Shown: positions 8,318-28,866 of the stretch, in pieces
How positions within the stretch are numbered: position 1 is the first letter of the stretch
Layout: each line of letters opens with the position of its first letter
Translations under genes and position numbers: made by a program
Notes under the pieces: model-generated
Seen by the model: the letters and a program-made list of their open reading frames with translations, nothing else
Databases searched by the model: none
What the model was told of the DNA's origin: nothing
Source of the DNA: Candidatus Micrarchaeota archaeon
Lineage (GTDB): Archaea > Micrarchaeota > Micrarchaeia > Anstonellales > Bilamarchaeaceae
DNA: 57,271 nucleotides
Assembly (NCBI GenBank): GCA_038046805.1
Contig: JBBSVO010000006.1
Span: 43,081 to 100,351 of the forward strand
Direction of reading: 5' to 3'

Positions 8318-9097
8318 TCATTTTATATTCTCCCTCAATCCCTCAAAAAACCTTTTTGCTTCTTCGTAATCTCTTCCCTTTATGATGTGCTTCAGGAATT
8401 CAATTCGTCCGGAAACTTTTTCCAGCTGTTTTAGCGAATGCGGGCTAAACAATATCTCTGAAAGGAGCCAATCATCTTCTGAAAGAAGGCCTTTTGCAAT
8501 CGTGCGGTGCTTCTTGAAAGTTGTTCCTGGAACAGATTTCGGTTCCATACATGCGGCAAATATGAGCGAAGAGGCAAACGGCAATGTAAGTGAGTATGCC
8601 ATCATTTCATCATGCTCTTTGAACGTATAATGGAATAGATTTATGCCGAGCCGTTTTCCGAGCGTTTCGAAGATTGTGGCCCATTCTGCGTCAGATTCTT
8701 TTATTATTACCATATTCTCATCCGAAAGCGATTCGACATTCGCAAACGTTGGCCCGAACATCGGGTGAACTGAAACGAATTTCATCCCTGTCTTTTTGTA
8801 GAATTCCGGCATTCCTGCCTTTATCGAGGCAACATCCGCGAGAATGCAATCTTTTGGGATAAGGGGCACTACTGATTCAAATGCCGCGACTGTATTCCGC
8901 AGGCTAACAGCGTTAATCAACAATTGCGGCTCAAATGTTTTTATCTCCGAAAGTTTCGCGAGAAGGTGCGCGTTCTTTATTCCACGCGCCTTGTTTTCGT
9001 CTATGTCGTAAACTGCGACTTCATGCCCGCCCGTCTTTAGCAGCTCATTCGCAAGCCAACTTCCCATATGTCCAATACCAATAATTATAATCTTCAT
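8318..9097 (-). CDS. tyrA: Prephenate dehydrogenase
   Basis: Rossmann IIGIGHMG, DVASIK, HPMFGP and EHDEMMA; last gene of the aro operon. Confidence 0.9.
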   Translation of the reverse strand: MKIIIIGIGHMGSWLANELLKTGGHEVAVYDIDENKARGIKNAHLLAKLSEIKTFEPQLLINAVSLRNTVAAFESVVPLIPKDCILADVASIKAGMPEFYKKTGMKFVSVHPMFGPTFANVESLSDENMVIIKESDAEWATIFETLGKRLGINLFHYTFKEHDEMMAYSLTLPFASSLIFAACMEPKSVPGTTFKKHRTIAKGLLSEDDWLLSEILFSPHSLKQLEKVSGRIEFLKHIIKGRDYEEAKRFFEGLRENIK

Positions 9098-9111
9098 ATT
9101 TTCATCTCCTT

Positions 9112-10194
9112 TTATTCTGTTTTCTCCTCTGTGTAACATCCAAGCATCCTAAACATCTCTGTCCTTTCCTTTGCCAGTTTCAGTGCCTCAGCGACACCTG
9201 AATCTCTTTCCGAACCCTGCAAATCCAATAGGAAAGCGAATTTTCCGTGCTCGCCTCTTATCGGTCTTGACTCAATGCGCGTGAGGTTTATGCCTGCATC
9301 TGAAAACACCTTTAGCACAGCGAATAATGCGCCTGCCTTGTGCGGGGTGGTGAAAGCGATTGAACATTTGTTTCCCACGTCATTGTTTTTTTGCTTAGAA
9401 AGCACGACAAATCGTGTTGAGTTTGACGAATGATCCTCAACATTCTCCTTTAGCACTTCCAATCCATAAATCTCTGCACATAGCCTGCTTGCGATAACTG
9501 CTGCTGCCTTTGGCCTTTCGTTTGCAATCATTGCTGCAGCGCCAGCAGTATCGTAATATGGCCTTGCTTCCAGCTTGTTTCTTGCAAGAAAATTCCTACA
9601 TTGCCCTAATGCCTGTGGATGGGAATAAACGACTTTTATTTCGCGGTAATCTGTATCTGGAATGGCAAGCAGACAATGATGTATTGGAAGGTTTATCTCT
9701 CCGATTATCTGCAGGTCTGATTCGGCTGTTTCAATCAACAGGTCGTTTACTGCATTCACCGAACCTTCAAGCGAATTTTCAACAGGAACAATCCCCAAAT
9801 CCAGCTGTCCGTTCTCCACTGCTTCGAAAACATCTGCGAATTCCAGACAGGGTACCGGAACAGCGCTTTTGTCAAACGCAGCAACTGCCATTTCCCCAAA
9901 TGCACCATGCTCCCCCTGGAATCCAACCAACTTCAGGTTTTTTCCCTGTACGTGTTTTGCTTCGTCAATAAGTTCCCGGAACATTTTTTCCGAGAAATCC
10001 GGAGCAACGATGCCGTGGCTTTGTTTCCGCACGTTTGCGATTATTTCATTTTCACGTTCGGAATCATTCCCTACACTCCAACATTCGTTTCTCAGCTTCT
10101 TTGCCCTCAGTGCAAGCTCCATTCGCTTGCTTATGAGTTTTAGAAGTTCGGAATCAACCCTATCAATATTTTTTCTTGTTTCTTTCAAGTCCAT
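9112..10194 (-). CDS. pheA: Chorismate mutase/prephenate dehydratase (P-protein)
   Basis: N-terminal AroQ (RKNIDRVDSELLKLISKR), VPVENSLEG, SHPQALGQC, NSTRF, and ACT domain NLTRIESRP. Confidence 0.95.
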   Translation of the reverse strand: MDLKETRKNIDRVDSELLKLISKRMELALRAKKLRNECWSVGNDSERENEIIANVRKQSHGIVAPDFSEKMFRELIDEAKHVQGKNLKLVGFQGEHGAFGEMAVAAFDKSAVPVPCLEFADVFEAVENGQLDLGIVPVENSLEGSVNAVNDLLIETAESDLQIIGEINLPIHHCLLAIPDTDYREIKVVYSHPQALGQCRNFLARNKLEARPYYDTAGAAAMIANERPKAAAVIASRLCAEIYGLEVLKENVEDHSSNSTRFVVLSKQKNNDVGNKCSIAFTTPHKAGALFAVLKVFSDAGINLTRIESRPIRGEHGKFAFLLDLQGSERDSGVAEALKLAKERTEMFRMLGCYTEEKTE

Positions 10195-10204
10195 GCTATT
10201 CACC

Positions 10205-11203
10205 TCATTCTTTTGAAACGCACCTTATTTTCTGTTCAATCATCATCAAATCAGCAAGAACTATTGCTGTCACTGCCTCTACAACAACCGGTGCACGCAA
10301 TGCTATGCACGCATCATGCCGTCCTCCGGTTTCCAGTTCTGCAAGGTTTCCAGTTTCCAGATTTACAGTCTCCTGCCTTTTTCCTATACTCGAAGTCGGC
10401 TTTACCGCAACCCGGAACACTAATTCGTTCTCGTTCGTTACTCCGCCGTTTATTCCGCCGGAATTGTTTGTTTTTGTTTTTCCGCTTACTGTGTCAATTA
10501 GCAAATCATTGCATTCGCTTCCGCGCATTCTCGCAGATCCGAAACCTATACCGAATTCAATTCCTTTGACTGCAGGGATGGAAAATATCGCGTGACTTAT
10601 GAGCGATTCAACCGAATCAAAGAACGGTTCACCCAATCCAATCGGAACTCCGCTAGCGCGGCATTCTATAATTCCGCCAACAGAATCATCGTCGCGCATT
10701 GCAGCTTCGACGGCTTCGTTTATTTGTTTTGAGCCGCCCGCTTCGGTAAGGCGCGCGTTGATTTCGATAGGCTTAATTAGCTTTTTCGCAATCGCACCCG
10801 CGGCTACCAATCCAAGCGTAAGCCTTCCTGAGAAATGCCCTCCGCCCCTGTAATCATTGAATCCTTCAAACTTCGCATGTGCAACGAAATCTGCATGTCC
10901 TGGTCGCGGTGTGTTTTTTATCCGCTCATACGGGGTTGAATCCGTATCGAGGTTCTCAAACAAAATCAATATCGGTGCGCCGGTAGTTTTTCCGTTGAAT
11001 ATTCCGCTTTTGATATGAGGTATGTCATCCTCGGTTCTTGTTGTTGTTCCTTTTGTACCGCTCTTTCTTCTTGCAATATCTGGCAGCAAATCCTCTGCAG
11101 ATAATGAAATGCCTGCAGGACACCCATCCACCACTACGCCAACGCAATCCCCATGCGATTCCCCGAATATGCTTACGCGAAATAATCTTCCGAAAGTGTT
11201 CAT
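10205..11203 (-). CDS. aroC: Chorismate synthase
   Basis: MNTFG...FGESHG, PRPGHAD, GGGHFSGR, GRHDAC; ATGA overlap with the aroA stop. Confidence 0.97.
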   Translation of the reverse strand: MNTFGRLFRVSIFGESHGDCVGVVVDGCPAGISLSAEDLLPDIARRKSGTKGTTTRTEDDIPHIKSGIFNGKTTGAPILILFENLDTDSTPYERIKNTPRPGHADFVAHAKFEGFNDYRGGGHFSGRLTLGLVAAGAIAKKLIKPIEINARLTEAGGSKQINEAVEAAMRDDDSVGGIIECRASGVPIGLGEPFFDSVESLISHAIFSIPAVKGIEFGIGFGSARMRGSECNDLLIDTVSGKTKTNNSGGINGGVTNENELVFRVAVKPTSSIGKRQETVNLETGNLAELETGGRHDACIALRAPVVVEAVTAIVLADLMMIEQKIRCVSKE

Positions 11204-12408
11204 AACAAATTCACCCCTAACGAACGCAAGTCTGTGAAAAATTCCGAATATGATTTTGAAACGCATTCTGCATTTTGAATTGTAACTCCGCTTGTTGCAT
11301 TTAGCGCGGCTATTGCGCATGCCATTGCGATCCTATGGTCTCCGTGCGAGTTTACGGTTCCACCTTTCAGTTTTGTTCCAATTATTTCAAGCGCGTTTCC
11401 GTTAATCCGCAATTTTGCTCCGAGTTTTTCAAACTCCTCAACAAGCACCGTTGCCCGGTCGCTTTCCTTGTGCCTTAACCTATCAACCCCGATAATCCTG
11501 CTTGTTCCATTGCAATTGCATGCAAGTGCAACCAATGGCGGGAATAGGTCCGGGCAATTCGTTGCATCGAATTCAAATGATGAAAGTTTTGTTCCACACC
11601 TTTCCAGTGCAGTTAGTATCTCCTTGTCTGCTTGTGCGGGATTCTTATCGAGTCCATTAACTCGCACCTTTCCCTTTCCAGCAATCTCATTCGCTACAAG
11701 CATAAATGCGGCTCCAGACCAATCTCCCTCGATGTCGCAGTTCAGTGCAGAGTATTTCTGGTTTCCGTTGATGGCGAACGCTCCATTTGTTTCAGTTATT
11801 CTCGCACCGAACTTACGTGCAATTCCGAGCGTCATATCCACATAAGGTCTGCTTTTCAGGTTTTTTACGGTAACAACCGAATCTTTTTCACATAATGGCA
11901 ATGCAATCAGCAGCCCGGTTAGGAATTGCGAACTTTCCGAACCATCCACTACTACGGTTCCGCCTTTCATTGGACCGCGAACCACTACGGGTGGCTTTCC
12001 GTTATTCGTTTTGTATTCCGCACCTAGCATCCGCAGCGGCTCTTCTATCATCCCAACAGGTCGCGAGAGAAGCGAACCATTTCCGGTAAGTGTAATCTCC
12101 TTATCAAACAATGCCGCGATTGGAGAGAACATCCGCATGCACAGGCCGGATTCCCCACAGTCGAGCGAACCGGATACGGAATTTTTACCCCCAGTTATCC
12201 GCACGGAGTTACCATCACTATTAACCTCTGCCCCAAGTGCCTTTGCAATTTCAAGTGCTGCCTTTGAATCATCACAGAATGACGCGTTCGTTAGTGTAGT
12301 TGTACCTTTTGCTAGTGCTGCCAGTGCAACTGCCCGTTGCATCATGCTTTTTGATGGAGGTGCAGTTATTGTTCCGCTAACCTCGCCTGGCTCAATAGTT
12401 ACGTTCAT
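11200..12408 (-). CDS. aroA: EPSP synthase
   Basis: PPSKSMMQRA, CGESGL, SSQFLTGLL, LRHKESDR, DHRIAMA. Confidence 0.97.
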   Translation of the reverse strand: MNVTIEPGEVSGTITAPPSKSMMQRAVALAALAKGTTTLTNASFCDDSKAALEIAKALGAEVNSDGNSVRITGGKNSVSGSLDCGESGLCMRMFSPIAALFDKEITLTGNGSLLSRPVGMIEEPLRMLGAEYKTNNGKPPVVVRGPMKGGTVVVDGSESSQFLTGLLIALPLCEKDSVVTVKNLKSRPYVDMTLGIARKFGARITETNGAFAINGNQKYSALNCDIEGDWSGAAFMLVANEIAGKGKVRVNGLDKNPAQADKEILTALERCGTKLSSFEFDATNCPDLFPPLVALACNCNGTSRIIGVDRLRHKESDRATVLVEEFEKLGAKLRINGNALEIIGTKLKGGTVNSHGDHRIAMACAIAALNATSGVTIQNAECVSKSYSEFFTDLRSLGVNLL

Positions 12409-12414
12409 TTTATG

Positions 12415-13773
12415 TCAACCTCTCAAAACTTCACTTGCTATCTGTTCTGCAACTTCCCTTGCTGATTTTCCATCCGTGTTCACGACTATGTCTGCCGTCC
12501 TCGCGTAAAGCGGAATTCTTCTTTCAATTATTCTTTGCGCAACTCCTTCCCTGTCTGCAACATTCAGCAACGGGCGGCTTTCATCTTTCCCTATCCTCTC
12601 GAATATTGTTTTTGGTGAAGCAGTTAACCACACAACCGTGCAGTTCTTCAGTAGGATTTCTACATTTTCATGGTCAAGTATTGCCCCGCCTCCGCATGCG
12701 ATTACAGAGTTCGTTGTACCATTAATCGCAGTTACCTCCTTTTTCTCCATATCTCGGAATTTCATTTCGCCATGATTCTCGAAAATCTCTTTGATTTTTG
12801 TTCCAGTTTTCCGTTCGATGTTTTCATCGATATCACTGCAATTCATTCCGCTTATCTTAGCGATCTCCTTTGCAGTAGTAGTCTTCCCGCTTCCCATAAA
12901 ACCGATTAGGGCGATGTTTGGTTTTCCGGCTGTTTTCGCGGTTGTACAGTGCGAGTAAAGCGCGGTTCTCATCATTTCTATTGGCGCGTCCTTTCCTGTA
13001 AACAAACTAAATGCAGCAGCACCCTGATGGAGCAGCCATTCCCGTCCATCTATCACTTTGCATCCCGCAGTCTTTGCATCCCGCACAAGTGCGCTTTCTG
13101 AGGAATAATTCGCGTCAAGAACAATCGTGCCGCGTTTCAGCAATTCGTGCGGAATAATTCTTTCATTTTGACTTCCGCCAGAAGTTATTGCCGAAATAAT
13201 AATGTCCGCGTGCGGAACAACTCCATCTACGTTATTTAATTCCGAAATATCAATTGCTTCGCATCCGAATTTTTCTGCGAGTTGTTCTGCTTTCTCAAAA
13301 GTGCGGTTAGCAATCGTAACTTTCGCTCCTTTATTCATCAGAGCGACAACTGCTGCCTTTGCTGCTCCACCTGCGCCAATTATTAGTGCATTTTTTCCAG
13401 CAATTTCTATCCCGCTAGTGGCCAATGTTTCCATTACGCCAGTGACATCGGTGTTAAATCCGCTGACTGTTCCGTTTCGGTTCAATATAACTGTATTAAC
13501 CGCACCCGTCTTCTTCGCGTCCTCATCAAGCGTATCGCATAATTTCGCAATTTCCTCCTTGAACGGAGAGGTTACATTCAGACCGAAAATACCGAGTGCT
13601 TTCGCGCTACGCAGTACGTCATCCGCGTTTTCGACAGCCAATCTCGTATAAATTGCATCAATTCCGCTCGCCATAAACGCCGCGTTCTGCATCTGCGGGC
13701 TAAGACTATGTAGTATTGGCTTGCCTGTAACGGCGAATAAAATTATTTTTTTCCGTGCGTCTTCCTCATTCAT
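12415..13773 (-). CDS. aroE: Shikimate dehydrogenase-shikimate kinase fusion (AroE-AroK)
   Basis: HSLSP, NVTSPFK, GAVNT, NTD and GAGGAA, followed by a P-loop kinase IALIGFMGSGKTT, ACGGG, RPLL. Confidence 0.93.
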   Translation of the reverse strand: MNEEDARKKIILFAVTGKPILHSLSPQMQNAAFMASGIDAIYTRLAVENADDVLRSAKALGIFGLNVTSPFKEEIAKLCDTLDEDAKKTGAVNTVILNRNGTVSGFNTDVTGVMETLATSGIEIAGKNALIIGAGGAAKAAVVALMNKGAKVTIANRTFEKAEQLAEKFGCEAIDISELNNVDGVVPHADIIISAITSGGSQNERIIPHELLKRGTIVLDANYSSESALVRDAKTAGCKVIDGREWLLHQGAAAFSLFTGKDAPIEMMRTALYSHCTTAKTAGKPNIALIGFMGSGKTTTAKEIAKISGMNCSDIDENIERKTGTKIKEIFENHGEMKFRDMEKKEVTAINGTTNSVIACGGGAILDHENVEILLKNCTVVWLTASPKTIFERIGKDESRPLLNVADREGVAQRIIERRIPLYARTADIVVNTDGKSAREVAEQIASEVLRG

Positions 13774-14419
13774 TTTTCGTTTCACCCAATATTTTCAGTA
13801 TTTGTGCCATTTCATCTTTGTTTATCTGTCCATCTGCAGTTTCCTTTCCATTTCCAAGAGATGCAAATGTGAACGGGCTTCCAAGAAGTGGTGCGGCAAT
13901 ACGCACAATTCTTCCAGCTTTACCCATACCAACAACTACAATCTTTCTGTTATCATCCAGTAATCCAAACAATCTCGCGCAATCTTGTTCTGAATTCACC
14001 TTACACGCAATCTTTGCAATATCTGCGCCTGAATCAAAACACCAATCAATTACCTGTCCAAGTTCTGCTCCAGATGGCGTTCGGTTGTAGTTATGAGACG
14101 AAACAATCACTGCACATCCCTTCGTTTTCGCTGCAGAAATAATCTCTTTTTTGTATTCGTCGCGGTTCTCCACTTCAATATCAACGAATGATGCACCGGA
14201 TTCAATTGCGGAGAGCAGTAGTTTCTTCCGCGCGTTTTCGTCAAGAGTTCCACCCGGACGGCATGTTGCAATCAAGCGAACCTGTTTTGAAAATATTTTC
14301 CCTATGTTTTCAACTGTCGCATCCCGCAATTTATCGATCCTGATTTCTGCAAACTCCAAACCATTCAATGCAGTAATGCATTTTTCCGTGCTATCTTCGC
14401 CAATGCTAACACAAATCAT
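13766..14419 (-). CDS. aroD: Type I 3-dehydroquinate dehydratase
   Basis: EIRID, IATCR, VDIE, SSHN, ADIAKIA and TADGQ motifs. Confidence 0.93.
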   Translation of the reverse strand: MICVSIGEDSTEKCITALNGLEFAEIRIDKLRDATVENIGKIFSKQVRLIATCRPGGTLDENARKKLLLSAIESGASFVDIEVENRDEYKKEIISAAKTKGCAVIVSSHNYNRTPSGAELGQVIDWCFDSGADIAKIACKVNSEQDCARLFGLLDDNRKIVVVGMGKAGRIVRIAAPLLGSPFTFASLGNGKETADGQINKDEMAQILKILGETKNE

Positions 14420-15443
14420 GAAGAGCCACCTCCAAATCCGCATCCGTTATTTCAACTACTTTTGCCTTTCCTATGCCTTCCAGCAAGATTATCCGCAGTT
14501 TTGCATTCCTTTTTTTCTTATCCTTCATTATCGCATCAATTATTGAGGTTTTATCGCATTTTCCGCTAAGCGTGATTGGGAGTCCGATCTTCTCAAGAAG
14601 CGCGCGCAAGCGTCTGAAATCCTTTTCTGTAAGCAATCCTTTTGCAACCGACAACCTTGCTTCGGCAACCATTCCAATGCTTATTGCCTCTCCGTGCGGC
14701 AATCCGGTTATTTTCTCGATTGCGTGTCCTATCGTGTGTCCGAAATTGAGTTTCATTCTTTCTCCATGTTCGGTTTCATCACGTTCAACTACCTTGGCCT
14801 TTGCCACAAGCGCGTCATGCAATACCTTTTCTATTGCGGTTTTCTTCAGGGAAATTGCTGCCTTGTGGTTCTCTTCCAGGTAAGCAAAAAGAGCCGAGTC
14901 ACTGATTGCGCCGTGCTTAACTATCTCGGCAAATCCGCATCTAAGTTCGCGTTCGGGCAGAGTCACAAGAAGTTCGAAATCGCACAAAACAAAATCCGGC
15001 TGTCTGAACGTGCCTATTATATTCTTGTATCCTTTGAAATTAACCCCGTTCTTGCCGCCTATGCTCGCATCAACCTGCGCCAATAATGAAGTCGGAACAA
15101 ACCCGCATTTTGTCCCGCGCATGAACGTCGTTGCTGCGAATCCAGCAATGTCGCAGACTATACCGCCTCCAATACCAATAATGGTTGAGGAGCGGTCAAG
15201 TCCGAGTTCAAGCAATCTGGAGTAAAGCATCTGTACTGTCTCAAGCGTTTTGTTCCCTTCACCAGTTCCAATTTCGATTACTTCCATTCCTTTTGGGAAT
15301 TTTGTTCCGCACGCTTTTCGCACGTTCGCATCCGTGATTATTACGGAATTTCCGATATCACAGTAACCGGGCAAGTGTTCCATTGACTCGCCAAGTACAA
15401 TCTTTGAATCCCCGGTCTTTCCATGAAGCTCAATGATTCTCAT
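14406..15443 (-). CDS. aroB: 3-dehydroquinate synthase (bacterial type)
   Basis: [42 protein letters not shown]. Confidence 0.97.
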
Positions 15444-16279
15444 TTCAAATCACCCTTAATTTTGTCCACGTTTAGCTCATCCATAAATTTCCTTAGCGCC
15501 CTTACGTTTTTCATTAATTCCGCAAACTGTGGTGGGGTTAAAGCCTGCTCCTTGTCGCTAAGCGCTTCGGGCGGATTGCGATGCACTTCTACAATCATTC
15601 CATCCGCTCCGCAGGCTACTGACGCAAGAGACATTGGTTGGATTAGGCTAATTCTACCGGTTCCGTGCGTTGGATCCGTAATAACCGGAAGGTGCGTAAG
15701 CTCTTTTACTGCCGGAACCGAGCTAAGGTCAAGAGTATTGCGCGTGTAGGTTTCAAACGTCCTTATTCCCCGCTCGCACAGAATTACATCTGGATTTCCA
15801 TCATTCAAAATGTATTCTGCGCAGTTCAACCACTCTTCTATAGTTGAGTACATCCCTCTTTTCAGAAGAATCGGCTTGTTTGCCTTTCCGACTTCTTTTA
15901 GTAAGGAGAAGTTTTGCATGTTTCTTGCGCCTATTTGGAGAACGTCCGCGTATTCACATACCCAGGAAACGTCTCTTGTGTCAATTACTTCGGTAACTAT
16001 CGGCAATCCGGTTTCGTCCCGCGCCTTTTCAAGGAGCTTCAATCCCTTTAGCCCCAAGCCTTGAAACGCATAAGGAGACGTACGCGGCTTAAACGCTCCG
16101 CCTCGTAACATGTTCGCGCCGGCCGCCTTTACCGCACGCGCGGTTTCCAACAGTTGCTCTTCGCTTTCTACACTACACGGCCCTGCGATAACAGTAAACC
16201 CTTCCCCGACCTTAACATCGCCCACGCGTACAATTGTCCTTCCATTTCCGTTCAATGTGGCTAATTTCAGATTTTTCAT
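15440..16279 (-). CDS. aroF: DAHP synthase, type I-beta
   Basis: [37 protein letters not shown] before ATG 16279. Confidence 0.95.
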
Positions 16280-16282
16280 TGA

Positions 16283-16568
16283 GAAAACCTCCGTTTTCGA
16301 GACCGATTGAAGCTTATGCTTCAATGGTCCATTTTTCGCTTCTGGCGAAAAATTGGATATTTGAAATCGCTAATGCGATTTCAATTTATGTTTAACGCAA
16401 CCTCCTTTTGATTTTCGTTTGTTTTTCGTTTTCTTATTTTTCTTTCAGTTCAATTTTTTTTCATTCCTTTTCAAATTTTCATATTAATATCTCTAGTTCT
16501 AGTCATATAGCGCCAACACAAAAACGGATATTAAAATTCTTAAATTCGGTTCGTTCTGGTGTTGGCTA
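16283..16568 (-). promoter_or_regulatory. Structured 5' leader of the aro operon (candidate attenuator)
   Basis: Inverted repeats 16508-16526/16552-16568, 16361-16384, 16328-16357, 16301-16329, and an SD-containing hairpin at 16283-16298. Confidence 0.6.
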
Positions 16569-16652
16569 TCAATAGTCAAACCAGTATCCAAAATAGCTAA
16601 AGCTGAAGAAGTCGAACGCATTAGATTTTATGTTTGCCTTAGCTGAATTCAT
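16569..16652 (-). CDS. Aromatic-amino-acid-rich leader peptide, 27 aa: MNSAKANIKSNAFDFFSFSYFGYWFDY
   Basis: Hand translation gives 6 Phe, 3 Tyr and 1 Trp in the last 15 codons, ending TGA-TAG. Co-oriented with and upstream of aroF. TATA-like TTTAAAAA (16683-16676) about 24 nt before the ATG. Confidence 0.85.
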   Translation of the reverse strand: MNSAKANIKSNAFDFFSFSYFGYWFDY

Positions 16653-16733
16653 AGATATTACTTGTTTTGATACATTTTTTAAAGGTTTGGGAACACATTA
16701 AGTACCACTAAAAGGGAGGAGTGAGGTGTATCT

Positions 16734-17570
16734 ATGGGTGCTGTACAAAATCAAGTTCATGGAAAAGAATTGTTAAGAGTACAAGTTCAGGGTCCGCCAA
16801 GAAATTTGGTAGTTCTCAGAGGTAACGGTTCAACAAGACTTTTTGATGCTCATCCTTTAGTAGATGCATTTAACGCAGAACATGGAACCCGGCTTACAGT
16901 CGTATCTCATAAAGTAGCTGATGTTGCACAGACAGTTGGCGACACATGGAGAAGTTTGCTCGCTTATGCAGTTGATGCTTCCATTGCTTATGAAAAGCCA
17001 GGAACAAAATTAGGAAAAGAAATAATTTTTACTGCTGATGGTGAACCAAAAGTCGCTTTGGCAACAGGCAAATTCAAAGGAGAACAAGATGTTGCTTTGG
17101 TAGCTTTAGGCATTAGTTCAACTGATTTCAAGAGAGATGGAAATTCCATCACTTTAGATATTCCTGAAAATAGATTAGTTGTAGTTCCAAACTTCCCTGG
17201 TCCAGATGGTTGGTATATGCCACATGCTGAAACAGGCGTTCCCCGAGGTAGGCAAGTAGAGCAAAGTTCTGATGCCAGATACCTCTATAGATTAAACGAT
17301 TCTTCGTATGTGGGCCTTCTGGTCCGCGGCGGCGGCAGGCAGGGCGTCAGTGCGCTCTACAGGGCGTCCATTAGGCTCGAGGTGGTGGCAGAAGTCCCCG
17401 AAGGGGACGTCGCGAAAATTGAGGCACTTCTCCCCGTGCTTGCTACCGAATCTTCGGCTTCCGGTTTAAGAATTATCAGGAATCCAAACGAACTTATCGT
17501 GCACGGAACTCCAGCGCAACTTGATGCCGCAGTACGGCTGCTTGGCGCGTCTCAGGGAATCCGACAGTGA
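16734..17570 (+). CDS. Hypothetical protein resembling a DGR target, with an internal variable-repeat-like segment
   Basis: GAGGTG SD. GC-rich, NNC/NNT-codon segment at about 17301-17390 (SYVGLLVRGGGRQGVSALYRASIRLEV), followed by hairpin GTCCCC-GAA-GGGGAC (17394-17408). Confidence 0.6.
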   Translation: MGAVQNQVHGKELLRVQVQGPPRNLVVLRGNGSTRLFDAHPLVDAFNAEHGTRLTVVSHKVADVAQTVGDTWRSLLAYAVDASIAYEKPGTKLGKEIIFTADGEPKVALATGKFKGEQDVALVALGISSTDFKRDGNSITLDIPENRLVVVPNFPGPDGWYMPHAETGVPRGRQVEQSSDARYLYRLNDSSYVGLLVRGGGRQGVSALYRASIRLEVVAEVPEGDVAKIEALLPVLATESSASGLRIIRNPNELIVHGTPAQLDAAVRLLGASQGIRQ

Positions 17571-19221: not shown

Positions 19222-20157
19222 TTATTTCTCCAAATCTCTCACAAACCCTTCAATCTCTTTCAGCGCATCCTGTTGCTTCTCGTGCTTGTTGTAAATTTCG
19301 ATTATCTTACTCCCGACGATAACTCCATCTGCCCCTGCCTTCACGTACTCTTGTGCCTGCTCTTTTGTTGAGATTCCGAACCCTACGCACAAACGGTTGT
19401 TATTCTTGTTGCCATTCACAAATTGTGGGTCGGATACCCCGCTGCTTGCAGCGTCCACAATTTGTGAAGTAGTGACCGAATGAGCGCATACCCCACTGCT
19501 CACAGTGGGGACTCTTCGGTCACTTTGATTTCCCGCGAGCAAGCGGATTCTCTTTACGAATTCAGTGGATTCCGGACTTACTCCGTCCTTTGTTCCAGTC
19601 GTACCTGCACTTGAAACCAAATAGGTAAATGGCGCGTTCGTATTGCGGCTATTTTCAAGTATTTGTTCCGCCCGTTCGTTTGTTGTATTCGGCGCAATTA
19701 AATTGATTATTGAAATTCCGCACGATTCTGCGAGCTTCTCGAATTCCACGTCCTCGCCGAATGGCAAATCAGGAATGATGAGTCCTTGTACTCCGGTTTC
19801 TTTCATCCTTTTGAGAAACATCTCGCATCCGTACGCATAAATTATGTTGAAATACGTCATAAACACGAACGGCACTACTACGACTTTGTCCGTTCCGTTT
19901 GTTATGTCCGTAATCGTTCCGTTTGTATTTGTTCCGTTCTCGCGTAATCTCGCAACCATTTCAAATATCTGTTCGATAGTTGTTCCGTTCGCAAGCGAGC
20001 GGTTAGCTGCGGCCTGAATGGTTTTTCCGTCCGCAATCGGGTCTGAGAATGGAATTCCCAATTCAATTATATCGGAATGGGGCGCAAGTGTGCGGACTAA
20101 CTTCTCAGTAAATTCAATGGAAGGATCTCCGCAGCAGACGTATGGGATAAATATCAT
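19222..20157 (-). CDS. trpA: Tryptophan synthase alpha chain with two in-frame insertions
   Basis: [37 protein letters not shown]. Confidence 0.95.
19415..19524. repeat. Double-hairpin palindromic element inserted in-frame in trpA
   Basis: Perfect 14-bp inverted repeat 19415-19428/19455-19468 and 10-bp inverted repeat 19471-19480/19515-19524. Each encloses ATACCCC plus a short inner hairpin. Confidence 0.8.
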
Positions 20158-21377
20158 AACCCTGCGCCTCCGGATTCTATTTTCGCCACATGCTCCACGT
20201 CTTTATCTCCCCGCCCTGAAAGATTTACGATGATTATTGAGCCGCTTTCACACTGCGGAACGAGCTTCTTCAAATATGCAATCGCATGCGCACTCTCAAG
20301 TGCTGGAATTATGCCCTCAGTCTTTGCAAGAAGATGGAATCCATCCAATGCCTCTGCATCTGTTATGGAAACGTATTCCGCTCGCTTCAACTCATGCAAT
20401 TGTGAATGTTCCGGACCAATCGCAGGATAATCCAAACCAGCAGAGATAGAGTGTGTTCCGCGTATTTGTCCGTCGCGGTTCTGTAATACGTATGTAAGAG
20501 TCCCGTGGAGTACGCCTTTTTTCCCATCACCACTTATCCTTGCAGCATGTTTTCCGCTTTCAATCCCTTTTCCTCCTGCTTCAACTCCGATCATGCGTAC
20601 GTTCGGCTCACCAACAAATCCGGAAAACAATCCTATCGCATTGCTCCCGCCACCAACGCATGCGACAAGCGTATCAGGAAGTCTTCCTTCTGCCTCAAGA
20701 ATCTGTTTTCTTGCCTCTGTTCCTATCACGCTTTGGAAATGTTTTACGATTGTTGGATAAGGGTGCGGTCCAAGAGCAGAACCGAGAAGGTAGTGAGTAT
20801 CCTTGAAATTCGTTGCGTAATCCCGCAATGCTTCGTTTATCGCGTCCTTTAATGTTTGTGTTCCGCTTTCAACTATTCGCACATTTGCTCCGAGCAGTTT
20901 CATACGATAGACGTTCAGTCTTTGCCTTTCTGCATCTTCCTTGCCCATATAAACATCGCATTCCAGTCCAAATAATGCGGCGGCAGTAGCTGTCGCAACT
21001 CCATGCTGACCCGCGCCTGTTTCAGCAATAACCCGTTTCTTTCCCATGGCCTTTGCAAGCAATGCCTGTCCTATTGTGTTGTTTATCTTATGTGCGCCAG
21101 TGTGCAGCAAATCCTCGCGTTTGAGGTAAATGCGGATGTCGTGGCCTTCACTTCCATTTCCCGTGAGTTTGCGGCTCAAATTCTTTGCATAATAAAGAGG
21201 AGTTGGCCTTCCAGCATATTCCGTCAGGTAGTAATTCAGTTTTTCGTTAAAGTGCGAATCATTTTTCAGTTTTTCAAATGACTGTTCGAGTTCTTGCAAT
21301 ACTGGAACTAACAGTTCGGAAACGTACGTTCCGCCGAATTCTCCGAATCTTCCAGTACGTGGGTTGGTGTCGCTCAT
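20154..21377 (-). CDS. trpB: Tryptophan synthase beta chain (TrpB1 type)
   Basis: [46 protein letters not shown]. Confidence 0.98.
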
Positions 21378-22171
21378 CTCAATCTAAGCTCCGTTACCTT
21401 ATCCCGTAAATTATCTGCTTTCCATATTGCGGTTCCAACTAAAATTCCATTCACTCCGCACGCCCGCACGAATTCCGCATCACTTTTTGTTTTTATTCCG
21501 CTTTCGCTGATTACTGGTTTGTTTATTGTTCCGCTTTGCGTGCGGGTTTCGTCCAATATCTGTTTCGTGCGGTTCAAATCAACTTTCAACGTCCGCAAAT
21601 CGCGGTTATTTATTCCGAGAATATCCGCATTTGTTTCGTTTGCGCGCTTCATTTCATCTGAGTCGTAGCATTCAAGTAGCACTTCAAGCCCGTGTTCGTG
21701 TGCCGCTTCGATTAGTTTGTTTATGTCTAATCCAAGCCTATCCGCGACCTTCATAACAAGAAGAATACAATCCGCTCCGTAATAAGCCGCGGCATTTATC
21801 TGTTCTGTGGAAATCACAAAATCCTTGAATAGTACTGGGAGTTCGGGAGCCGCGCCCTTCACCATTGGAATATTTCCCAGGTTTCCTTTGAATATTTGCG
21901 GTTCAACTACAACCGAAACCGCATCAGCCCCACATTCCATGAAATCCCGCGCGGTTTTCTCCACGTCAATATTGTCAAAAGAATATTCGCCTGCCGGAGA
22001 GGCGTGCTTTATTTCCGCGATAAGGCTAAACAATTGCGAGAGAAGTTTTTGTTTTACTGAAACGCGAGCGGAATTTTTGTTTGTTTTTGTTCCGCTAATC
22101 GCATAATAACCATTCGCAACGTTTTCTTTTGCCTTTTCAATGAATGTATCAAGAATGTCTGTTTCGGTCAT
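21374..22171 (-). CDS. trpC: Indole-3-glycerol phosphate synthase
   Basis: [25 protein letters not shown]; no TrpF domain. Confidence 0.95.
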
Positions 22172-23190
22172 GATACTCGCCTCAGTTCATCAAGCTTTGC
22201 TAACACTTTACCTGAATCAATCGCTTTCTCAGCGAACGTTATTCCCTGTTGAATGCTTGATGCAATTCCGCTAACATAAAGCGCAGCCCCGGCATTGAGA
22301 AGAACGATATCGCGAGCGGAACTTCTGTTCTTTCCATTCAGCACGTTCAAAATCATAGCCGCACTTTCTTTCCTATCCGCAACAACCAATTCTGAAATAT
22401 CTGCACGTTTGAATCCGAAATCTTCCGGGGAAACGGAATAATTTTTTATTGTTCCGCTTTTGTTAAGCTCGGATATTTCCGTTTCTGCGCTTATGCCAAT
22501 CTCATCCGTATCGCTGGAAACAATAAGCGCATGCTCAGTTCCAAGAATACGTAAAGCCTCAGCCATTTTCCCTGCAGTTTCCCTGTCAAAAACCCCGATA
22601 ACCTGCCTTTTTACATTCGCAGGGTTGGCAAGCGGGCCAAGAATATTGAAAACCGTGCGAAAGCCGAGCTCTTTGCGTATTGACGCAACGTTTTTCATCG
22701 CTGGATGGAATGCTGGGGCAAAAAGGAATGCGAATCCATGCGTTTCAATCATTCGTTCCGCATCGTGCGGCTCTACAGTAATCTTAATTCCGAGTTCCTC
22801 AAGCACGTCAGCGCTTCCTGTTTTGCTGGATGACGCACGATTCCCGTGCTTTGCAACCTTTGCTCCGCACGCAGATGCAACAATCGCTGCGCATGTGGAA
22901 ATATTGAATGTTCCGCGTCCATCCCCGCCAGTTCCGCAGGTATCAATGAGGTGGCCTGCCGTCGCTTTCGGACTAATTGAAATCATATTTTTCCGCATCG
23001 CAAGCGCGAACGCGGCGATTTCTTCCGAGGTTTCCCCCTTTATTTTAAGTGCAGTAAGAAATGATGCAACCTGGGCGTTCGGAACAGCACCAGTAATTAT
23101 CGCGTTCATTGCGGATTCGGCTTCAACTGCGTCTAGAGTCTTGAGTCTTGCGTCTAGAAGTTTTGCCAGTATTTGTGAAAATTCAGCCAT
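22168..23190 (-). CDS. trpD: Anthranilate phosphoribosyltransferase
   Basis: DTCGTGGDG, NIST, KHGNR, GSADVLE, FNILGPL. Confidence 0.97.
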   Translation of the reverse strand: MAEFSQILAKLLDARLKTLDAVEAESAMNAIITGAVPNAQVASFLTALKIKGETSEEIAAFALAMRKNMISISPKATAGHLIDTCGTGGDGRGTFNISTCAAIVASACGAKVAKHGNRASSSKTGSADVLEELGIKITVEPHDAERMIETHGFAFLFAPAFHPAMKNVASIRKELGFRTVFNILGPLANPANVKRQVIGVFDRETAGKMAEALRILGTEHALIVSSDTDEIGISAETEISELNKSGTIKNYSVSPEDFGFKRADISELVVADRKESAAMILNVLNGKNRSSARDIVLLNAGAALYVSGIASSIQQGITFAEKAIDSGKVLAKLDELRRVS

Positions 23191-23833
23191 CGATTCCGCC
23201 TCCTCTTGCCCGCGCTTCGGCAATATTGCAAAAATTCTCAAGGATCTTCTTTCCTTCATCGGTCATTATTGACTCCGGATGGAATTGCACTCCGAAAATA
23301 GGAATGGTTTTGTGTTTAATCGCCATTATCGCATTGTCATCAGTGCTTCGTGCGGTTATAGACAAGCAATTCGGAAACGAGTCGTTATCGCCAACAAGGG
23401 AATGATACCGCATAACCTTTAGCGGACTCACAATACCTTCAAATAATCCGTTTGCGTTATGCTTGATCTCGCTTGTTTTCCCATGCATAGGCTTTTCCGC
23501 GCGGATTATCTTTCCGCCAAACACGGAAATTATCCCCTGATGGCCTAGACAAACCCCGAGAATCGGAGTGCGGCTCTCCATATCCGCAAATTCGCCAATT
23601 ACTTTTCCACATACTCCAAAATCCCGCTCGTTTGTAGGATCCCCAGGACCTGGAGAAAGAATAATCGCATCATAGTTCGCAGCGCGGATTTGCTCAATCG
23701 TAATTGCGTTATTCCGCACGACATCCACAGAATGCCCAAGCTCGCCAAGATACTGGTAAATATTATACACGAACGAGTCAAAGTTATCGATTAGTAGAAG
23801 CTTCAACTTTCTCTCCGGATTCTCAGAGCTCAT
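23183..23833 (-). CDS. trpG: Anthranilate synthase component II
   Basis: IDNFDSF, SPGPG, GVCLGHQ, RYHSL, QFHPES. Confidence 0.97.
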   Translation of the reverse strand: MSSENPERKLKLLLIDNFDSFVYNIYQYLGELGHSVDVVRNNAITIEQIRAANYDAIILSPGPGDPTNERDFGVCGKVIGEFADMESRTPILGVCLGHQGIISVFGGKIIRAEKPMHGKTSEIKHNANGLFEGIVSPLKVMRYHSLVGDNDSFPNCLSITARSTDDNAIMAIKHKTIPIFGVQFHPESIMTDEGKKILENFCNIAEARARGGGIDG

Positions 23834-25272
23834 TATCTCCTCCCCCCGTTTAATGCTGCCTCGTATTTCTCAACCCCTATTGCCTGCAATAATGCGCGTG
23901 CCTTTCCTTCTGTCTCGTCAAATTCTTTCTCAGGAACGCTATCATAAACTATTCCTGCTCCTGTTTGAATGTACGCACTTCCCTTTCTCGCAAACAGCGT
24001 CCTTATCCCAATAGCAAAATCCGCATTTCCATTAGCAGAGAAATAACCAACTGCGCCAGCATAAGGCCCGCGTTTTGTTCCCTCGAGTTTGTCAATAATC
24101 TCAATTGCGCGCACTTTTGGTGCACCAGACACAGTTCCGGCAGGAAATATTGAGCTAAACGCGTCAAAAGAATCCTTTCCGTCCGCCAATCTGCCCGTAA
24201 CTACCGAAGCGATATGCTGAACATCAGAATACTTGTGCACTGACATGAATTCCGGGACTTTCACTGTTCCGGGCACGCTAATCTTTCCAATATCGTTCCG
24301 CGTCAAATCCACGAGCATAAGGTGTTCTGCCCGTTCCTTCTCATCGTTAAGCAGTTCGGTCTCGAGTCTAGTATCTTCTGTTTCGGTTTTGCCGCGTGGT
24401 CTTGTTCCTGCAAGCGTTGCATAGCTGGTTAATTCGCGCCCTTCCACGCGAATTAAGTTCTCCGGGCTTGAACCGATTACCTCGCGTTCACCGAACTTAA
24501 TGTAGAACATATACGGAGATGGGTTTGTTGCCTTCAGCTTCCGATAAAATGGCATCATGCTGCCAGCATATCGTATCTCATAGCGTTTGGATAGAACTGT
24601 TTGGAAAATGTCGCCAGCGCGGATATGTTCTTTAGCTTCCTCAACCATCTTGCAAAATCTCTCCTTAGAAACATTGCATTTCTTGTTGAACATTTCAAAT
24701 CGTTTTGTCTCAAAACTCGAATCGCGGATATATTGCTTTATTTCATTCAGCCTGCCACCATCGTTTCCATAATACAGATATCTTATACTTCCGTTCTTGT
24801 GGTCATAGACTATTGCATCATCAAAAATCCCGAATTCAAAATCAGGAAAACTAATTTCATCTTTCAACTGCGTTCGGAATTCTTCCACGTACCTGATATA
24901 GTCAAACGAGAAATAGCCGACTGCTCCGCCAAGGAATCCAGGCGTATTGAGCGTATTTGTTCCGATTTGTTTTTTTAGTTCAGAAAGCGGATTATTATTT
25001 TTGATTTCGTATTCCGAATTTCCAGTAGTTCCGTCCGTATTTCCTTCTATATTTATTATTCCGTTCTTTAGCCTAATGTGCTTTTTAGGAGAGAATCCAA
25101 GAAAAGAGAATCGCGCGAGCTTTTCCGCGCCTTCGCTGCTTTCAAGAAGAAATGCATTTTCACAATGTTCTGATAGCACTGAAAACATGTCTGTTGGGGA
25201 TATTTGTAGCTCTAGGGTAGTCGAATGCGGAGTCTGGCCAAAGTAAATCCCTTTCCTGTTCCATGTTTTCAC
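23833..25272 (-). CDS. trpE: Anthranilate synthase component I
   Basis: FLLES, NPSPYM, EHLMLVDL, PAGTVSGAPK; GTG start is uncertain. Confidence 0.95.
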   Translation of the reverse strand: MKTWNRKGIYFGQTPHSTTLELQISPTDMFSVLSEHCENAFLLESSEGAEKLARFSFLGFSPKKHIRLKNGIINIEGNTDGTTGNSEYEIKNNNPLSELKKQIGTNTLNTPGFLGGAVGYFSFDYIRYVEEFRTQLKDEISFPDFEFGIFDDAIVYDHKNGSIRYLYYGNDGGRLNEIKQYIRDSSFETKRFEMFNKKCNVSKERFCKMVEEAKEHIRAGDIFQTVLSKRYEIRYAGSMMPFYRKLKATNPSPYMFYIKFGEREVIGSSPENLIRVEGRELTSYATLAGTRPRGKTETEDTRLETELLNDEKERAEHLMLVDLTRNDIGKISVPGTVKVPEFMSVHKYSDVQHIASVVTGRLADGKDSFDAFSSIFPAGTVSGAPKVRAIEIIDKLEGTKRGPYAGAVGYFSANGNADFAIGIRTLFARKGSAYIQTGAGIVYDSVPEKEFDETEGKARALLQAIGVEKYEAALNGGRR

Positions 25273-25281
25273 CTGTTCGAG

Positions 25282-25325
25282 TGTAATTGTTTGTAACCCG
25301 TTCTGCGACTTTGTATGTATTTAAA
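25282..25325 (-). promoter_or_regulatory. trpE promoter (TATA) with a degenerate TRP-box pair
   Basis: TTTAAATA at 25325-25318 on the minus strand; TGTAAT-N4-TGTAAC at 25282-25297 on the plus strand. Confidence 0.45.
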
Positions 25326-25614
25326 CGTTTGTGGATAGAAGTATACATTATTCTCTTTATTTTATTTAATCTGCATGGTACTCTGATGATTTATATTTTG
25401 CAACATGCTCCACGTTCGTATCCCCGCATCCGGAAAGATTTACAATTATCTTGGTCATATAAACCGATTACGTGACAAATATCAACCTCGTTAAAGCATG
25501 CTAACTCCATTTTTTCACAGAAATAATGCGATTTAACGCCATTATCCTGAAGAAAACATTGAAAAAACTGGAGTTGACTGATTTCATAATTTTTTCCAGT
25601 CTCTGTTAGCGATA

Positions 25615-25644
25615 CTTTTAAACATCAATGTACTAAACTATACA
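25615..25644 (+). promoter_or_regulatory. trpY promoter with a TRP-box pair
   Basis: CTTTTAAA box, then TGTACT-AAAC-TATACA (25629-25644) immediately before the ATG. Matches the TGTACA-N4-TGTACA TrpY operator known from Methanothermobacter. Confidence 0.6.
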
Positions 25645-25645
25645 T

Positions 25646-26146
25646 ATGCTAAACCTCCTCGAAGAATTTTTTGCCCATGCGCGCGGAAGAAAGCAGGTTG
25701 CAACCGAGCTGTTGCGCCGTGGGTTCAAGGTAGACGGAAAAGGAAAGATTTATGCCGGTGCGATAGAGCTTCCGCCAGCCAAAATCGGGCGAGCGATTGG
25801 AGTGGATCGCCGCGTCGTGATCGAAACCGCGCGCGCAATTGCAGCAGATGATAAACTAATTCAAATTTTCTATAGGCTTGAGCCGCGTGCATTCCTTGGA
25901 AATGCGGCAAAAGAGCTCGGATTTGATGTCATAGAAATCCGGGCGGATCCGAAAAAGAAAGGGATTGTTGCGGCAGTAACAAAGGCACTGGCAGACAATA
26001 AGGTGAATATAAGACAGATAATAACCGATGACCCGGATTTGTTTCCTGACCCGGTGCTAACGATCATAATTGACGGCAAACTAGGCGCGGGAGTAATAAA
26101 GAAGCTAAAGGAAATGGATTTCGCGGAGAGCGTGATGATACGGTAG
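25646..26146 (+). CDS. trpY: TrpY-family regulator (HTH + ACT)
   Basis: GKIY...IGRAIGVDRRVV...GFDVIEI...IRQ...DPDL...LTII, as in TrpY/COG2150; divergent from trpE. Confidence 0.8.
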   Translation: MLNLLEEFFAHARGRKQVATELLRRGFKVDGKGKIYAGAIELPPAKIGRAIGVDRRVVIETARAIAADDKLIQIFYRLEPRAFLGNAAKELGFDVIEIRADPKKKGIVAAVTKALADNKVNIRQIITDDPDLFPDPVLTIIIDGKLGAGVIKKLKEMDFAESVMIR

Positions 26147-28713: not shown

Positions 28714-28866
28714 GGGCTCATAGCTCAGAAGCAGAGCGCCTGATTCGCAGAAGCTTTTTGACTTCTGAAGCATAAGGGCAAAAACCTTGGAAAAAGCCCT
28801 TAAGCAGCAATGTCAAAATATTTTCGAGAATTCAGGAGGCCGAGGGTGCGAGTCCCTCTGAGTCCA
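28714..28866 (+). tRNA. tRNA-Ala(CGC) with an 81-nt canonical 37/38 intron (28750-28830)
   Basis: Acceptor stem GGGCTCA/TGAGTCC with G3:U70 and A73; anticodon stem CCTGA/TCAGG; BHB TTCG/CGAG with CAG and AAT bulges. Confidence 0.9.

Follow-up and report, generated by a model that had tools for sequence, protein, structure and literature searches.

Leader-peptide attenuation requires a ribosome acting on nascent RNA and is regarded as a bacterial mechanism. In E. coli trpL and pheL and in C. glutamicum aroR, a short ORF carrying a cluster of cognate codons lies ahead of a biosynthetic operon, and a helix at the stop codon can be blocked by the terminating ribosome. For archaea, Xie and Reeve reportedly proposed in 2005 a Met-Trp minigene in the trpY leader of M. 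thermautotrophicus.

C. glutamicum aroR also sits before the DAHP synthase gene aroF (PMC11802643, accessible sections). TrpY (M. thermautotrophicus) and Tar/TK0271 (T. kodakarensis) regulate archaeal aromatic operons too but, unlike a leader, are DNA-binding proteins acting at initiation, according to the accessible text of PMC6737238, in which neither 'attenuat' nor 'leader' occurs. Mycobacterial polycysteine leaderless sORFs also sense amino-acid supply near the transcript start without an intrinsic terminator; their output, in the available part of the source (10.1101/834739), is release of a sequestered RBS, and no such change is predicted for the leaders described here. Archaeal terminators are described as U-tracts for which a hairpin is dispensable (PMC8716108), and FttA as favouring RNA rich in U, reading a U at -23 and a U-rich stretch at -30 to -36 from the polymerase 3′ end (PMC11616081); the accessible portions of both papers place aCPSF1/FttA terminators at transcript 3′ ends and inside operons, and no 5′-leader case gated by a ribosome was found there. 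In its accessible part, the FttA structure paper presents exclusion of FttA by a trailing ribosome as a hypothesis yet to be tested, and archaeal small-proteome papers, in the sections available, mention uORFs in general terms only. An archaeal cognate-codon attenuator was not found in the full-text literature, mostly outside subscription journals and bioRxiv supplements, that was accessible in part: PMC13675443, PMC11616081, PMC7261190, PMC4833913, PMC8716108, PMC13681488, PMC9371683, PMC6737238, PMC11802643, PMC11456600 and PMC10117724.

The stretch analysed here (the window) comprises 57,271 nt of a Candidatus Micrarchaeota genome (G000; 1.2 Mb, 86% complete, archaeal SSU rRNA), whose nearest aroF loci in GTDB are those of Ca. 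Micrarchaeota. A first-pass annotation had proposed an aromatic-rich leader peptide in it as a candidate for ribosome-dependent attenuation, a proposal supported by conserved leaders and product-matched placement, with regulation itself predicted from sequence. The leader shares with bacterial attenuators a cognate-codon ORF, conserved placement and a helix at the stop that a terminating ribosome could block. It differs from them in its archaeal host, its TATA-type promoter, the absence of a GC-rich hairpin followed by U residues (0/45), the use of three aromatic residues in most copies and an output that is presumably archaeal U-tract/FttA termination. It would resemble a bacterial attenuator in its working, outside the classical hairpin-terminator family of trpL and pheL.

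Leader ORF and aromatic operon in the window

16569..16652, minus strand: leader ORF of 27 codons, translation MNSAKANIKSNAFDFFSFSYFGYWFDY followed by a stop
15440..16279, minus strand: aroF, DAHP synthase without N-terminal ACT domain, operon gene 1 (TIGR01361 and PRK08673 over cut-off)
8318..15443, minus strand: aroB, aroD, aroE-aroK, aroA, aroC, pheA (CM-PDT) and tyrA (NCBIfam)
16285..16386, no strand assigned: four clustered short palindromes; this repeat module, also present elsewhere in the genome, lengthens the spacer

Translation agrees with the reported 27-codon ORF ending in an aromatic cluster, as codons 1–12 of MNSAKANIKSNAFDFFSFSYFGYWFDY contain no aromatic residue and the last 15 contain 10 (6 Phe, 3 Tyr, 1 Trp). 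By best 15-codon aromatic count it ranked first among the 13,130 ATG ORFs of 8–45 codons in G000 and was the only one to reach 10. Dinucleotide shuffles of the window intergenic region (n = 2000) gave a maximum of 7 against the observed 10, and none reached 8. The spacer between the leader stop and the aroF ATG (16279), put at about 290 nt in the first-pass annotation, measured 289 nt. NCBIfam matches in the order aroF-aroB-aroD-aroE/K-aroA-aroC-pheA-tyrA bear out the eight-gene shikimate/Phe/Tyr operon that had been described, aroD and tyrA being recognised only below curated cut-offs. At the Rfam gathering threshold, T-box, riboswitch and leader families were unmatched in the window, and the sole match was a tRNA.

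The palindrome block lies outside the conserved leader and is missing at this position in most relatives, in which the median distance from stop to aroF is ~96 nt. Tandem short-palindrome modules also occur in G000 at C2:132228, C6:218132, C6:269328 and C11:19778, and the spacer of L003 is likewise lengthened by an insert of similar character.

Conservation of the leader at aroF loci

aroF was matched in 70 of 401 phylum genomes. Counting one locus per genome and taking at least 70% identity as close, an F/Y/W-rich uORF, which the first-pass annotation had proposed to look for in relatives, preceded aroF as a leader like that of the window at 32 of 37 close loci and 14 of 36 distant ones, the genomes and loci counted being kin and the counts non-independent. 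The five close loci without it were L126 and L127, in which a co-directional ORF lies directly 5′ of aroF; L031 and L033, from two Micrarchaeota of one genus, in which a promoter-like region immediately precedes aroF; and L010. In an unsupervised comparison, the best F/Y/W score was at least 6 in 30 of 37 aroF upstream regions versus 5 of 80 controls (trpE, hisG and ilvB-like).

Across 57 distinct leaders, Phe was present in all, Tyr in 56 and Trp in 44, which agrees with the earlier idea that one peptide covers all three aromatic residues and would, on sequence grounds, serve to regulate by them. When the core Ser-Phe-Ser/Gly-Tyr/Phe was located without reference to ORFs, it fell in the own frame of a short ORF at 44 of 44 distinct loci, versus 2 and 3 in the other frames. 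Core Ser was encoded by AGC in 43 of 49 matches and core Phe by TTT in 41 of 49, unlike aroF itself, which favours TTC over TTT (214:67). The distance from core to stop varied from 0 to 9 codons, and that from stop to aroF from 72 to 462 nt. Judged from these comparisons, the window leader ORF is a real, lineage-wide feature.

Scanning the phylum for the core motif gave 124 positive genomes of 401, with many chance matches in antisense frames. A metagenome pattern scan was mostly chance: 18 of 119 matches had a short in-frame ORF, and two (L344 and L426) looked real. Two Thermoplasmata MAGs (L071 and L090) carry the same aro operon with no recognisable leader within 700 nt. The leaders of L022, L037 and L095 have a duplication-like internal extension with extra helices inside the ORF.

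Leaders ahead of other genes and in bacterial relatives

Genomes without the bacterial-type aroF also turned up in the core-motif scan; in them this leader, again with a hairpin beside the stop, stands ahead of aspartate kinase, (asd,) ADH synthase and DHQ synthase II. This ADH-synthase route is the archaeal path to dehydroquinate, and its first enzymes are non-homologous to those of the aroF route. Among the 10 ADH-synthase genomes, the leader was found in six (G011, G012, G279, G397, G098 and G206) and not in three, and one contig was too short. Placed before non-homologous first enzymes too, the leader tracks the pathway product rather than the gene. Micrarchaeota loci of this type with a leader are L326-L329, L336 and L337, and aspartate kinase is the first gene in four. 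In a single case (G088, L331:1238-1303), a leader with Phe as its sole aromatic residue lies 120 nt ahead of a stand-alone prephenate dehydratase gene (pheA). At L330:632-709 (G015), a typical leader with FSFSY core and TATA-like box has no recognisable aromatic gene behind it and is possibly orphaned.

ilvB was over cut-off in 17 genomes, and Leu/Ile/Val-rich leaders were seen at 8 of the 16 loci inspected (L222, L225, L267-L271 and L273), a raw count in which L273 was assigned by eye. These leaders follow TATA-like boxes, most have a hairpin at or just past the stop codon, and in several the 3′ arm of that hairpin is not U-rich. By sequence they are a candidate second attenuator class in Micrarchaeota.

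At 30 trpE loci, many with a TrpY-like gene in divergent orientation, the upstream regions yielded no convincing Trp leader and one candidate (L183). No His leaders were found at 20 his regions from the 31 genomes with hisG, a few regions falling short of the operon start. An unannotated divergent ORF pair (~135 and 190–240 aa) recurs near his operons at L247-L250, L252 and L265. Short-ORF pairs precede hisD in several his loci, and we take these to resemble AbrB/MazE-type regulators.

The closest bacterial aroF homologues, in MAGs at L075-L121 (Desulfobacterota, Bacteroidota, Leptospirales and Syntrophorhabdaceae), are ACT-less, ~75% identical to the Micrarchaeota enzyme and also preceded by F/Y/W-rich leaders. 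Among 18 chosen by eye from the bacterial loci, 10 had TTGAC-type promoters and 14 had classical terminators, and they mostly lacked the AGC-TTT core; placement before ADH-synthase genes is by contrast a trait of the archaeal leader. A quick aroF tree of 120 rows, with five short or distant loci omitted, placed bacterial sequences among Micrarchaeota, on a weak backbone and with biased sampling.

Promoter region

16676..16683, minus strand: TATA-like box TTTAAAAA, 23 nt ahead of the leader ATG

The TATA-like box, previously put about 24 nt before the ATG, is near-palindromic. It also lies ~55 nt ahead of a divergent ORF at 16734 and, from its position, may serve the leader, this ORF or both. 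No sigma-70-like promoter was found between 16200 and 16800, and the archaeal promoter called by the first-pass annotation is matched by an archaeal-type promoter region in the sequence. By raw pattern count, 38 of 57 leaders had a strict TATA pattern no more than 75 nt from the start, mostly at -40 to -57, so most leaders probably have a short 5′ UTR; in most relatives a GUGGU/GUGAU element lies between the TATA-like box, 40–57 nt ahead, and the ATG. The leaderless transcript suggested earlier fits the window copy, which may be leaderless (TATA at -31), and a few others; it does not hold for most relatives, with the box 40–57 nt away.

Helices A and B

16593..16607, minus strand: conserved nucleotide core, F-S-F-S-Y codons, with the helix A 3′ arm (16603–16595) inside
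16636..16644, minus strand: helix A 5′ arm, codons 3–6, from folding and from covariation in relatives
16552..16566, minus strand: hairpin B 5′ arm, beginning 5 nt past base 1 of the stop codon, where a terminating ribosome would cover it
16512..16526, minus strand: hairpin B 3′ arm, rich in U with a U5 run, a candidate termination signal that B would mask
16487..16502, minus strand: downstream motif, YAGWG-type, candidate pause or termination position, above score 6 at 38 of 45 loci

In helix A, the first codons pair with the core, within the ORF. Hairpin B has a median of 17 bp. Counted from the stop, its 5′ arm has a median position of -9 to +13 and starts by +13 in 43 of 45 leaders, a proximity partly built in, as B was picked from a search interval opening 21 nt before the stop. 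In 43 of 45 aromatic leaders, B carries four or more consecutive U residues in its loop or 3′ arm. The two helices were evaluated on alignment A1 (MAFFT; 29 of the 45 leaders, of similar length), using a structure drawn by hand from these same, related sequences: 81.5% of cells were paired versus 37–49% for slid controls, 13 of 28 pairs were changed on both sides, and 0 of 500 shuffles matched the paired share or the covariation score. RNAalifold on alignment A1 returned neither helix A nor B and gave a 3-bp helix only. Whole-ORF folding was stronger than in synonymous shuffles in 15 of 57 leaders, the window leader not among them (z +0.59).

The ribosome was modelled with a footprint of 28 nt; 27 nt is reported for Haloferax (PMC7261190, accessible part). 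In these folding models, B was retained in 42 of 45 leaders when the ribosome occupied the first aromatic codon and lost in 42 of 45 when it stood at the stop, and 290 of 386 aromatic codons allowed B under a stalled ribosome; L011, L012 and L094 showed no switching. In the window copy, B was stable to W24/F25 and collapsed at Y27 and at the stop. The helix at the stop thus depends on ribosome position, as an antiterminator's would, in silico only and subject to the selection bias in how B was picked. Mean accessibility of the arm U-run rose from 0.12 to 0.53, with a rise above 0.3 in 27 of 45 leaders only, and in the window it was flat at 0.22 in all states. At equilibrium, B refolded without a ribosome in 38 of 45 leaders, and shut-off therefore requires kinetic coupling, which equilibrium folding does not see. 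The same method predicted a clear switch for just 3 of 14 bacterial terminators.

A second uORF at the downstream motif was considered and rejected: an in-frame start was present in 23 of 32 cases, only 7 of them ATG, and codon types were not conserved.

Output step and alternative explanations

A GC-rich hairpin followed by U5 was found in 0 of 45 archaeal leaders versus 14 of the 18 bacterial ones, and no intrinsic hairpin-U terminator was present on the minus strand of the window. G000 encodes aCPSF1/FttA (TIGR03675 over cut-off, C3:80014-81897). Like the leaders, aCPSF1/FttA terminators have a U-rich signal with no required hairpin, and the spacing in the leaders fits loosely with that described in the accessible portions of PMC8716108 and PMC11616081. 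In a register set post hoc, the position at -23 from the downstream motif falls in the 3′ arm of B in 32 of 38 leaders, a loose FttA fit; it is U in 23 of 38 and G in the window, and the U fraction at -36 to -30 is 0.49. One metatranscriptome (0.16 of words present; contig depth ~2; zero cover over the leader and 14110–16553) was too shallow to inform.

The lack of a hairpin-U terminator, the flat accessibility of the aroF start given below, the U-tract/FttA mode of archaeal termination and the FttA gene of G000 together point to a model with B as the antiterminator, the positional counterpart of the bacterial 2:3 helix, with the bacterial 3:4 GC hairpin missing. The leader would act in cis as an attenuator read by the ribosome: it would sense how far the tRNAs for Phe, Tyr and Trp are charged and gate read-through into the aromatic operon. 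Under starvation, the ribosome would stall on aromatic codons 5′ of B, B would fold and hide its U-rich 3′ arm, and RNA polymerase would continue. With an ample supply of aromatic amino acids, the ribosome would arrive at the stop and cover the 5′ arm of B; the opened B would leave the U-rich arm single-stranded on untranslated RNA, and the exposed arm would lead to termination by aCPSF1/FttA cleavage or at oligo-U.

That the leader is a functional aromatic sensor is highly probable on the sequence comparisons. Masking of a U-rich archaeal terminator (aCPSF1/FttA or oligo-U) by B is the output we favour on balance from the folding models. The sensor is well supported by sequence, and the output is inferred as the best among several options; the stop-codon hairpin supplies this candidate output mechanism, which the first-pass annotation did not give. 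We tentatively extend the model to a native attenuator family, aromatic and branched-chain, in which a stop-codon ribosome would open an antiterminator and hand a U-rich site to CPSF73-like aCPSF1/FttA.

The same sensor could instead have a translational output, ribosome position setting whether the first gene's start region pairs with B through its pyrimidine-rich loop or arm; this is unlikely, though it survives best of the alternatives. At L050 and L054 the pyrimidine tract folds back on the start region of aroF in structures lacking B, start accessibility goes up under a stalled ribosome in two ilv leaders ending 45–48 nt before ilvB, and the mycobacterial polycysteine leaders offer a precedent (10.1101/834739, available part). 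However, mean accessibility of the aroF start region did not shift (0.45 without ribosome, 0.47 stalled, 0.41 at the stop; 42 loci, a set that omits three long-spacer loci including the window), a change above 0.15 in the expected direction occurred in 6 of 42 loci only, and the models did not show an RBS sequestered unless the ribosome is stalled, as in a translational attenuator. The tolerance for spacers of 72–462 nt, 289 nt in the window, also argues against it.

With about as little probability, or slightly less, B could serve the same sensor as a pause or by generally protecting the RNA from cleavage or from the loading of factors, acting through polarity or mRNA stability, with the U-run incidental. 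The ilv stop-adjacent hairpins without U-rich arms, the window U-run whose exposure does not switch and the conserved downstream motif, otherwise unexplained, would all suit such a role; the U4+ run that B carries in its loop or 3′ arm in 43 of 45 aromatic leaders, and the -23 position within the 3′ arm in 32 of 38, speak against it.

Nascent-peptide arrest, in which an FSFSY/FSFGY peptide and free aromatic amino acid would stall a ribosome near the stop, in a TnaC-like manner, and hold B open, is very unlikely. It would account for the conservation of the motif at the peptide level, and prolonged stalling at the stop would resolve the problem of B refolding, but the distance from core to stop is not fixed (0–9 codons), synonymous positions are conserved too, as helix A explains, and ilv leaders carry different, cognate codons.

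Least probable of all is a non-regulatory origin as a by-product of U-rich intergenic DNA, a relic of a transferred operon or a trans-acting small peptide: U-rich DNA readily yields Phe codons, bacterial relatives of aroF also carry F/Y/W leaders and the leader is missing from L031 and L033, but the frame test (44/44), the Tyr and Trp codons, the covarying helices, the retention of the leader across 14 families of non-homologous first genes and the fit of codon identity to product (pheA, ilvB) all oppose it.

Implications

The leader family is codon-matched and conserved in archaea, and its RNA layout does without the bacterial terminator. If the model is true, leader-peptide attenuation would operate on archaeal, eukaryote-like transcription machinery, and the leader would be a natural reporter of archaeal transcription-translation coupling. 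Its compact cassette of ~170 nt would make it possible to test if translation controls termination by FttA or at oligo-U, and by what means, and it is a candidate case of amino-acid biosynthesis under regulation in a DPANN lineage with small genomes.

Other features of the window

A trpE-G-D-C-B-A operon occupies 19222–26146, divergent from a TrpY-like gene that scored below cut-off. trpF is absent between trpC and trpB, and TrpA, at 311 aa, is long and seems to contain insertions. A 32-codon Phe-containing ORF begins at ~25587 on the minus strand. The tRNA match at 28714–28866 spans 153 nt, which implies an intron.
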